This document shows, one piece after another, positions 58,207 to 58,333 of a stretch of 64,000 bases of DNA. The stretch lies in the NCBI GenBank assembly GCA_024683775.1, contig GCA_024683775.1_4106.1; one strand, given 5' to 3'. This DNA is from a phage. Made by a program: the position numbers and the translations under genes. The notes under the pieces are model-generated. The model was not told the DNA's origin. It made no database searches and worked only from the letters and a program-made list of their open reading frames with translations. Numbering within the stretch: the stretch's first letter is position 1; each line of letters starts with the position of its first letter.

Positions 58207-58236
58207 TTGAAATGTGTTCAAAAAATGTGGTATAAT
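58207..58236 (+). promoter_or_regulatory. sigma70-like promoter TTGAAA-18-TGgTATAAT
   Basis: Consensus elements with extended -10. Confidence 0.55.
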
Positions 58237-58261
58237 ACCTCTGTTGTTCACGGAAAGATTA

Positions 58262-58333
58262 AGCGGGGCTGCCTGAGTAGGCTTAAAGGAGAGGATTGCA
58301 AATCCGATGTTCGTGGGTTCGAATCCACACTCA
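58262..58333 (+). ncRNA. small RNA candidate with tRNA-like T arm (GGGTTCGAATCC); not foldable as a canonical tRNA by eye
   Basis: Just downstream of a strong promoter; GC-richer; T-arm-like box and CCA-like 3' end. Confidence 0.35.

Follow-up and report, generated by a model that had tools for sequence, protein, structure and literature searches.

The window analyzed here, a stretch of 64,000 nt, includes the tRNA region of an Asteriusvirus-type (PBECO4/Rak2-like) Escherichia coli jumbo phage, in which ARAGORN and Rfam recognized seven tRNAs between 53.6 and 60.9 kb and through which genes for HNH homing endonucleases are scattered. When positions 57500 to 59500 were compared with the phage collection by megablast, matches were found in Escherichia, Klebsiella, and Enterobacter jumbo phages of the PBECO4/Rak2 group, with no record covering more than 60% of these 2 kb; the left half matched JNE01 (99.8%) and the right half WPEC5 (99.7%), and the locus is therefore a mosaic. 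Two plus-strand tRNAs, tRNA-Met(CAT) at 58494-58572 and tRNA-Asn(GTT) at 58585-58669, were called by both ARAGORN and Rfam and are likely the real products of the transcription unit. In front of them lies a spacer of 154 nt (58340-58493, plus strand), which normally separates tRNA-Ser(GCU) from tRNA-Met and would be part of the presumed transcript. This spacer was present in 17 phage records at 95.5 to 100% identity, and its RNA fold was strongly stable (z = −3.41, with 0 of 200 shuffled sequences as stable). Directly upstream of it, ARAGORN identified an intact 90-nt tRNA-Ser(gct) in 15 of the 17 records, most of these genes being identical and none differing by more than 2 substitutions. Only in JNE01 and UE-S1, the other two records, is the place of tRNA-Ser taken by the element that also stands in the window, at 58262-58339.

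Upstream of this element, a −35 hexamer (TTGAAA, 58207-58212) and a −10 hexamer (TATAAT, 58231-58236) are separated by 18 nt, with TGg directly preceding the latter. The arrangement TTGAAA-18-TGgTATAAT, for which the earlier note had claimed a strong promoter, is thus present at 58207-58236 on the plus strand as a sigma-70-type promoter with an extended −10. In a consensus scan it scored 11 of 12 with the extended −10 and ranked second in the interval from 55000 to 61500, and the combination TTGAAA-N16-19-TATAAT occurred twice in the 64 kb, versus 0.40 expected. Extended −10 promoters of the form TGnTATAAT numbered 18 on the plus strand of the window versus 5 on the minus strand, and promoters of this form directly precede other tRNAs of the cluster.

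The promoter is also conserved. No substitution was found in its 30 nt relative to UE-S1, where two tandem copies occur, and JNE01 differed from the window only in a spacer that is 1 nt shorter; these two were the only Escherichia phage records in which it was found. Four phages from two other genera have orthologous sites, again ahead of tRNA genes: in Pectobacterium phage CBB, Cronobacter phage GAP32, Serratia phage BF, and Yersinia phage fHe-Yen9-04, the sequence TTGAAAcg..AAAAAATGTGGTATAATA stands about 16 to 20 nt upstream of the second tRNA-Met, and the promoter of the window, read as TTGAAATG-N-AAAAAATGTGGTATAAT, aligned with these copies. In GAP32 and BF the orthologous site likewise comes after a minus-strand gene, and in the fHe-Yen9-03 record the equivalent site is annotated as −35/−10 signals. 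A scan of IMG/VR with a 16-nt promoter core returned more than 120 hits and was discarded as far too unspecific. "Divergent RpoD-like" promoters with a TGAAACG −35 and a classic −10 have been described for CBB and GAP32 (PMC5259590), and the −35 box, the TATAAT, and the sequence orthology place the promoter of the window in this Rak2-like class. Taken together, these features indicated that the predicted promoter is genuine and not a chance match. Since no terminator-like site was detected on the plus strand between the promoter and tRNA-Met (58494) or tRNA-Asn (58585), the promoter probably drives these two downstream tRNAs, and the intervening element would be a transcribed leader. On the minus strand, ATAAATA (the complement of 58184-58190), located 48 nt upstream of the start of a tail-spike-like gene, matches the late-promoter motif of CBB (PMC5259590), and the 100-nt intergenic region is therefore probably a divergent promoter region.

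The tRNA-like segment begins 26 nt behind the promoter and spans 78 nt (58262-58339), with a G+C content of 53.8% versus 31.7% in the local 300 nt. All sequence features that the earlier note had reported for this GC-richer segment were recovered, namely the tRNA-like T arm (GGGTTCGAATCC at 58315-58326), the CCA-like 3′ end (CCA at 58337-58339), and the absence of a cloverleaf. The window contains a single exact copy of GGTTCGAATCC, and all four matches to it with 1 mismatch lie inside tRNAs or tRNA-like elements. For 58262-58339, neither ARAGORN with default settings nor Rfam at the gathering threshold made a call. The tRNA covariance model (RF00005, gathering score 29 bits) aligned with a score of 19.2 bits, over model positions 8-63 only and without the acceptor stem, and the minimum free energy fold of the element was not a cloverleaf and was no better than those of shuffled sequences (z = +0.41, or +1.53 with the leader included). 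Of the searches proposed in the note, the relaxed ARAGORN run reported a tRNA-Cys(gca) only at the lowered threshold of −ps90, with two acceptor mismatches, one G·U pair, and a T loop shortened to 6 nt. The Rfam search assigned no family to the copies in the window, JNE01, or UE-S1, and under relaxed settings it returned a sub-threshold tRNA match and chance matches only.

Several other annotations of this stretch were rejected. A minus-strand Rfam match to "Plastid-psbl-rps4" merely reflects the T-arm sequence, and a 60-aa ORF with a TTG start (58207-58389) was dismissed because transcription is predicted to begin only downstream of that start. The short CDSs annotated here as "hypothetical protein" in UE-S1, WPEC5, ELP-22, JP4, and WPEC3 overlap tRNA sequence and were considered over-calls; in UE-S1, the element itself is misannotated as a 38-aa protein.

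Alignment with the tRNAs of related phages revealed that 58262-58339 is a hybrid tRNA gene, with a 5′ portion derived from a tRNA-Cys gene, a 3′ portion derived from a tRNA-Ser gene, and a junction between them. Positions 58240-58312 were 94.5% identical to the intact tRNA-Cys(GCA) of CBB over all 73 nt and 78 to 86% identical to the annotated tRNA-Cys of GAP32, BF, Erwinia phages, and fHe-Yen9-04, with values of 81 to 85% for those of GAP32, BF, and the Erwinia phages. The homology to CBB already sets in about 27 nt before the tRNA (at about 58235), where it covers the last 13 codons of CBB_489, and from there to 58310 the identity is 94%. These codons and a stop form a relic of a CBB_489/GAP32_468-like gene (58235-58276, plus strand), which overlaps the 5′ end of the tRNA-Cys sequence as it does in CBB, and tblastn matched 58235-58273 to residues 195-207 of CBB_489 with 92% identity; of the CBB_489-like gene nothing else is present in the window, nor is any GAP32_469-like gene. 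The tRNA-Cys(GCA)-derived 5′ three quarters (58262-58310, plus strand) comprise the 5′ strand of the acceptor stem, a class-II-like D arm, the anticodon arm, and a short variable region. The GCA anticodon (58298-58300) is set in a 7-nt loop, TTGCAAA, with U33 kept, and the element differs from intact tRNA-Cys by A7→C and, in the anticodon stem, by C28→A.

The crossover zone (58311-58328, plus strand) consists of the T-arm block TCGTGGGTTCGAATCC(C)AC, as delimited by the alignment and by homology to WPEC5, which sets in at 58311. CBB-type tRNA-Cys and Asteriusvirus tRNA-Ser(GCU) have 19 nt of the T arm, TCGTGGGTTCGAATCCCAC, in common, and the junction falls inside this block: left of it the window tracks tRNA-Cys (…TCCGATGT), and right of it tRNA-Ser (ACTCACTGCCA). 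From 58311 on, the sequence is the 3′ end of the WPEC5 tRNA-Ser(GCT) except for one C missing from the 3′ strand of the T stem, and the homology to WPEC5 continues for 1.67 kb downstream at 99.6%. The tRNA-Ser(GCU)-derived 3′ end (58329-58339, plus strand), made up of the acceptor strand ACTCACT, the discriminator G, and CCA, is that of the intact tRNA-Ser(GCT) carried by 15 Asteriusvirus records, WPEC5 among them. In the hybrid, the 5′ acceptor strand of tRNA-Cys thus faces the 3′ strand of tRNA-Ser, and a cloverleaf is therefore not formed.

A join within a 19-nt repeat that is common to several tRNA genes is a classic site of misassembly, and two tRNA genes might have been misjoined there in assembly or sequencing. 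We regard an artifact of this kind as having almost no chance of being correct, since the junction recurs in the complete genomes of JNE01 and UE-S1, which were sequenced independently and come from China and Pakistan, and each copy has its own extra mutations within the same flanking gene order. Screening IMG/VR with an 18-mer from the anticodon arm, GATTGCAAATCCGATGTT, revealed neither further chimeras nor a donor, the matches being only the copies in CBB, GAP32, and BF, an unrelated tRNA-Cys, and chance matches in coding sequence. The intact parents are sound tRNAs, scoring 59.2 bits (CBB tRNA-Cys), 58.5 bits (GAP32 tRNA-Cys), and 58.9 bits (WPEC5 tRNA-Ser) against the tRNA model and with both parents folding as cloverleaves (z = −1.8 and −2.6). 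As 15 of the 17 records also keep the intact tRNA-Ser, the hybrid is the derived state and the intact tRNA-Ser the ancestral one.

Each arm of the hybrid was inspected for the features of a functional tRNA. The acceptor strands AGCGGGG and ACTCACT do not form a 7-bp stem, giving C·A and G·A nonpairs and one G·U; ACTCACT is the perfect complement of AGTGAGT, the 5′ strand of tRNA-Ser. The discriminator is G73 (the G at 58336), compared with T in the intact tRNA-Cys of CBB, GAP32, BF, and fHe-Yen9-04, and U73 is the major identity element for cysteinyl-tRNA synthetase. The 1-nt deletion in the T stem (CCCAC→CCAC) leaves either a 6-nt loop or a broken stem in place of the 5-bp stem and 7-nt loop, and C28→A breaks a pair of the anticodon stem. 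The hybrid lacks a long variable arm, the feature used by seryl-tRNA synthetase. Against the full RF00005 model, all copies fell below the threshold, with 19.2 bits for the window, 16.6 bits for JNE01, and no match at E ≤ 10 for UE-S1. The 7-nt anticodon loop with U33 and GCA is retained, on a stem weakened relative to CBB. Overall, five of the six features of a functional tRNA or tRNA-Cys that were tested failed.

With a probability of about 0.87, the hybrid is a nonfunctional tRNA pseudogene. Of the two interpretations in the earlier note, a decayed tRNA therefore stands and is made specific as a Cys/Ser hybrid, and a regulatory RNA finds no support. The CCA end and the strong promoter 26 nt upstream are a counterpoint, as the ordinary tRNA transcription units of this phage look similar, and one could propose on this basis that the element is a structurally unusual but functional tRNA-Cys(GCA) supplied for translation. 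Such a tRNA would agree with the fold found at −ps90, which has a 7-nt anticodon loop, U33, and a 3′ CCA, with the strong promoter in front, as for other tRNAs of this phage, and with the observation that other odd tRNAs of the window seem to be maintained, for instance the one at 53743-53821, where a compensatory acceptor change is seen. It is nonetheless extremely unlikely, given the two acceptor mismatches and the 6-nt T loop, G73 instead of U73, a score of 19.2 bits versus 59 for intact orthologues, uncompensated changes at invariant positions, with the CCA and C56 missing in UE-S1, and the lack of a homologue in most Asteriusvirus genomes.

The three known copies of the hybrid (window, JNE01, and UE-S1) are near-identical, and their differences were used to examine its evolution. 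Between the window and UE-S1, the relic as a whole (58237-58339) showed 12 substitutions in 102 positions plus 2 indels, compared with 43 in 1,943 positions for all flanks (Fisher P = 9 × 10−6). The relic has thus diverged by about 12% versus 2.2% for the flanks, and neither purifying selection nor compensation was evident; within the hybrid proper, 9 of 77 positions were substituted, in addition to indels. The relic is the fastest-evolving stretch of the locus, in which the promoter and the spacer are conserved. Synonymous divergence in the adjacent ORF was 6.4% (pS, window versus UE-S1), and the relic was at or somewhat above this rate (11.8% versus 6.4%, P = 0.09). A rate above that of synonymous sites is not predicted by plain neutrality and may reflect older ancestry or patches of gene conversion.

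In the individual copies, JNE01 has GTGGG→GTGAG, and UE-S1 has TTCGAAT→TTAGAAT with loss of C56, CCA→TAA, G→T in the D loop, and further changes in the D and anticodon stems. On inspection, no compensated pairs were found among the three copies. In 3 of 3, neither the anticodon loop TTGCAAA nor the adjacent TCCGATGTT had changed, which could hint at residual constraint, though weakly with three sequences.

The invariant loop bears on two readings in which the RNA acts as something other than a translational tRNA. In the first, which includes the suggestion of the earlier note that the element resembles the small stable RNAs of T4, it would be a tRNA-derived regulatory or decoy RNA, similar to T4 species 1 and 2 or serving as bait for host nucleases that target tRNAs. 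The strong and conserved promoter 26 nt upstream and the anticodon loop kept in 3 of 3 copies are consistent with this, and interactions of phage tRNAs with defenses that target tRNAs are known (PMC12409363). We consider it very improbable, as the fold is no better than chance (z = +0.41 for the element and +1.53 with the leader), no Rfam family was recognized, and the element is the least conserved, fastest-evolving stretch of the locus, confined to three closely related genomes and explained over its full sequence by the junction of two parental genes. In the second, the element, abundantly transcribed from the conserved promoter, would be a tRNA mimic in which Cys-type D and anticodon arms are joined to an uncharged, mismatched acceptor, and it might act as a decoy for a host nuclease that targets tRNAs or for an enzyme that modifies them, or bind cysteinyl-tRNA synthetase unproductively. 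Because the invariance of the anticodon loop in the three copies is its sole hint, this reading seems very improbable; if true, the phages that took up the tail-spike cassette would have kept the element as a tRNA mimic.

The comparison between hybrid and spacer bears on a further possibility, that the element acts in cis as the leader of the tRNA operon behind it, for instance as an entry site for RNase P or RNase E or a processing module. Its position would suit such a role, as the promoter before it and the tRNAs after it are conserved and no terminator was detected between them, and so would the highly conserved and structured spacer that adjoins it. The conservation, however, resides in the spacer (1 of 145 positions substituted relative to UE-S1) and not in the hybrid (9 of 77, plus indels), and at the same position 15 related phages have an intact tRNA-Ser, so that nothing specific to the hybrid is required. 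A cis-acting leader is thus very unlikely, and the pseudogene remains the preferred reading.

The hybrid stands at one end of a larger replacement. Compared with WPEC5, 73 nt containing the promoter and the 5′ part of tRNA-Ser are replaced in the window by 2.77 kb (55546-58310), which comprise, in order, a NUMOD4/HNH endonuclease gene, tRNA-Ser(ACT), a 90-nt tRNA(CAT), tRNA-Met, a 565-aa minus-strand ORF, the promoter, and the Cys-derived part of the hybrid. The 565-aa ORF (56439-58136, minus strand) matched PHROG tail fiber and hydrolase families, is a tail-spike/depolymerase-like gene, and shares 47% amino acid identity with a tail protein of the Klebsiella podophage Henu1. Among Asteriusvirus records it was found in JNE01 and UE-S1 only, the same two that have the hybrid. 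The minus-strand gene g472 of GAP32 was considered as a relative of this ORF and rejected (E = 0.28).

At the left edge of the cassette, the tRNA-Met is itself a relic (56358-56430, plus strand), matched by the Rfam model over positions 8-63 only. Its acceptor strands read ACTCTGT/ACTGACC in the window and JNE01 versus GGTCAGT/ACTGACC in CBB, GAP32, BF, and UE-S1, from which it follows that the 5′ acceptor strand of the relic has been replaced. In UE-S1, about 300 nt more of CBB-like DNA is present to the left of the cassette. Since tRNA fragments with Mimasvirus affinities thus flank the tail-spike gene on both sides, we infer that the block came from a CBB-like relative. These affinities would also favor an exchange between genomes over unequal crossing-over within one. 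A donor in which the tail-spike gene adjoins an intact g489-tRNA-Cys was not found, nor was an intact copy of this tRNA-Cys in Asteriusvirus records.

We propose that a block of about 2 kb from a CBB-like (Mimasvirus-type) relative recombined into the Asteriusvirus tRNA cluster, with tRNA sequence serving as the homology. The block would have consisted of the tRNA-Met relic, the minus-strand tail-spike gene, and the promoter, with the hybrid as its right-hand edge. Under this scheme, the 5′ three quarters of the hybrid and about 27 nt of flank would come from a Mimasvirus-type tRNA-Cys(GCA), and the 3′ strands of the T arm and the acceptor, the discriminator, the CCA, and everything downstream from the resident tRNA-Ser(GCU), the join having occurred within the 19-nt T-arm sequence common to both parental tRNAs. 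Double-strand breaks made by homing endonucleases may have aided the recombination. The promoter would have arrived with the block; in donor-type genomes it would drive a tRNA-Met/tRNA-Ala unit, and here it most likely drives tRNA-Met, tRNA-Asn, and the genes that follow. The hybrid itself would be transcribed only as a leader, to be removed during tRNA processing and degraded.

As an unannotated tRNA pseudogene, the hybrid matters little in itself. It is of interest as a clean natural case of two phage tRNA genes recombining at a conserved T-arm sequence, and it marks the boundary of a horizontally acquired tail-spike (host-range) cassette with Mimasvirus-like flanks in the tRNA cluster of an Asteriusvirus. 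This boundary suggests that jumbo phages of different genera exchange genes with tRNA genes as portable homology anchors, and the hybrid calls for caution when tRNAs are counted or small RNAs predicted in the genomes of jumbo phages.

Comparison with known elements places the hybrid between its two parents. With the tRNA-Cys(GCA) of CBB, GAP32, BF, and fHe-Yen9-04 it shares the 5′ 49 nt (81 to 94.5% identity), including the class-II-like D arm and a G·A-containing anticodon stem, and with Rak2-like tRNA-Cys it shares the overlap with the 3′ end of an upstream gene. It differs from the latter in the swapped 3′ acceptor strand and discriminator, the loss in the T stem, and C28→A, with a drop in score from 59 to 19 bits. 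Relative to the tRNA-Ser(GCU) of Asteriusvirus phages (WPEC5, E9.1, BF17, JP4, and others), the T-arm block, ACTCACT, G73, CCA, and downstream spacer are identical or nearly so, whereas the 5′ acceptor strand, D arm, GCU anticodon arm, and long variable arm of tRNA-Ser are missing. The promoter, for its part, agrees base for base (TTGAAATG..N..TGTGGTATAAT) with the copies in CBB, GAP32, BF, and fHe-Yen9-04, but it departs from the RpoD-like class of CBB and GAP32 in reading TGAAATG instead of TGAAACG and in being followed by a pseudogene, where elsewhere a tRNA follows directly.

Like the species 1 and 2 RNAs of T4, the hybrid is a non-tRNA RNA-coding stretch in a tRNA cluster and is presumably cotranscribed with it; unlike them, it shows no conservation of fold (z = +0.41) or sequence among three fast-diverging copies, and the analogy with the stable RNAs of T4 would fit, if anything, the spacer at 58340-58493 and not the hybrid. 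By analogy, the closest precedent is the set of hybrid tRNA genes of T4. McClain and Foss (Cell, 1984) reportedly described hybrid genes from the tRNA cluster of phage T4 that had arisen when partly homologous tRNA genes recombined; these are said to be laboratory deletion mutants between neighboring genes of one genome, some of them functional. In both cases, a fusion within a tRNA cluster takes its 5′ part from one gene and its 3′ part from another, with the joint in a stretch of sequence that the two have in common. In contrast to the T4 hybrids, the one described here is natural, is fixed in a small clade, has a mismatched acceptor, and is decaying, and it probably arose by exchange between phage genera.

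Between the Cys/Ser chimeric tRNA pseudogene (hereafter the hybrid), whose place is normally held by tRNA-Ser(GCU), and the following tRNA-Met lies a spacer of 154 nt (58340-58493, plus strand) that shows 95.5 to 100% identity across 17 Asteriusvirus records, with only 1 of 145 positions differing between the window and UE-S1, one of the two related phages that share the hybrid. Its predicted fold consists of two hairpins inside an outer stem, GUUCC/GGAAC, with a minimum free energy of -35.1 and a z score of -3.41, and none of 200 shuffled sequences folded equally well. A -10-like GAGTATAAT is also found within the spacer. 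Searching Rfam with the spacer gave no match, and the 17 copies are too little varied for a covariation test. The spacer is thus a candidate for a structured RNA under conservation or for a module involved in processing.

The hybrid marks the right edge of the presumably recombined block carrying a tail-spike-like gene, and a second tRNA relic of the locus is found at the left edge, where ARAGORN called a "tRNA-Met" (56358-56430, plus strand). The 5′ acceptor strand of this relic is replaced, reading ACTCTGT versus GGTCAGT in UE-S1 and in the Rak2-like jumbo phages CBB, GAP32, and BF, and its Rfam match is limited to model positions 8 to 63. In the UE-S1 copy the acceptor is intact, but the anticodon loop has 8 nt and the T stem is degenerate. 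In public annotations, short "hypothetical protein" CDSs are placed over the hybrid or the 3′ end of tRNA-Ser in UE-S1 (L002, 3831-3947), in WPEC5 (L001, 2988-3080), a relative with intact tRNA-Ser(GCU), and in L029, L030, and L032 (358-450); these are probably gene-caller artefacts.

Other members of the tRNA cluster are also unusual. A class-II tRNA-Ser with the anticodon ACT (56164-56255, plus strand; 49.9 bits), which is also present in JNE01, the other phage with the hybrid, and in UE-S1, has A34 as the first base of that anticodon, which is unusual among bacterial-type tRNAs, and it may make up for the loss of tRNA-Ser(GCU) to the hybrid. A repeated promoter module, CTAAATAGTTCAGTACTGATATAAT, is found upstream of this gene and of others, and tRNA-Ser genes begin about 10 nt past the -10 element. 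Over the whole window, extended -10 promoters (TGnTATAAT) strongly favor the plus strand, with 18 there versus 5 on the minus strand, examples being those at 54763-54793, 56128-56156, 53630, and 25293-25322. The neighboring tRNA with a CAT anticodon (56263-56352, plus strand; 90 nt, 50.3 bits) is Met according to ARAGORN, yet its architecture, long variable arm included, is class-II-like, and the T loop reads TTAGAAT, not TTCGAAT. The tRNA-Asn(gtt) at 58585-58669 (plus strand) was called at 85 nt in the window and at 84 nt in WPEC5 versus 73 nt as annotated at the equivalent place in the Asteriusvirus records E9.1 and BF17, a difference in length that suggests that the variable region contains an insertion.

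A tRNA-like element at 53743-53821 (plus strand), missed by both ARAGORN and the whole-window Rfam run, scored 32.6 bits against the tRNA model. It possesses a good acceptor stem, a T arm, and a UCU anticodon arm, with only 4 nt filling the place of the D arm and a variable region of 23 nt. The WPEC5 copy is identical to that of the window, and in UE-S1 the equivalent position is occupied by a normal tRNA-Arg(tct). In JNE01 a C-G pair of the acceptor stem is changed to T-A, and this compensatory change suggests maintenance of the element.

Two free-standing HNH homing-endonuclease genes, one of the NUMOD4+HNH_3 type (55545-56102, plus strand) and the other of the NUMOD3+HNH type (58734-59276, plus strand), abut tRNA genes. 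The presence and position of these genes vary among the window, JNE01, UE-S1, and WPEC5, a pattern consistent with a tRNA cluster made mosaic by the endonucleases.

Inside this tRNA/early region, the opposite strand encodes a tail-spike/depolymerase-like ORF of 565 aa (56439-58136, minus strand), and a T4-late-like ATAAATA motif lies on the minus strand 48 nt upstream of its start. Because only JNE01 and UE-S1 carry the ORF among the Asteriusvirus records, we reasoned that it is probably a host-range gene acquired horizontally; its product shares 47% identity with the tail protein of the Klebsiella podophage Henu1.
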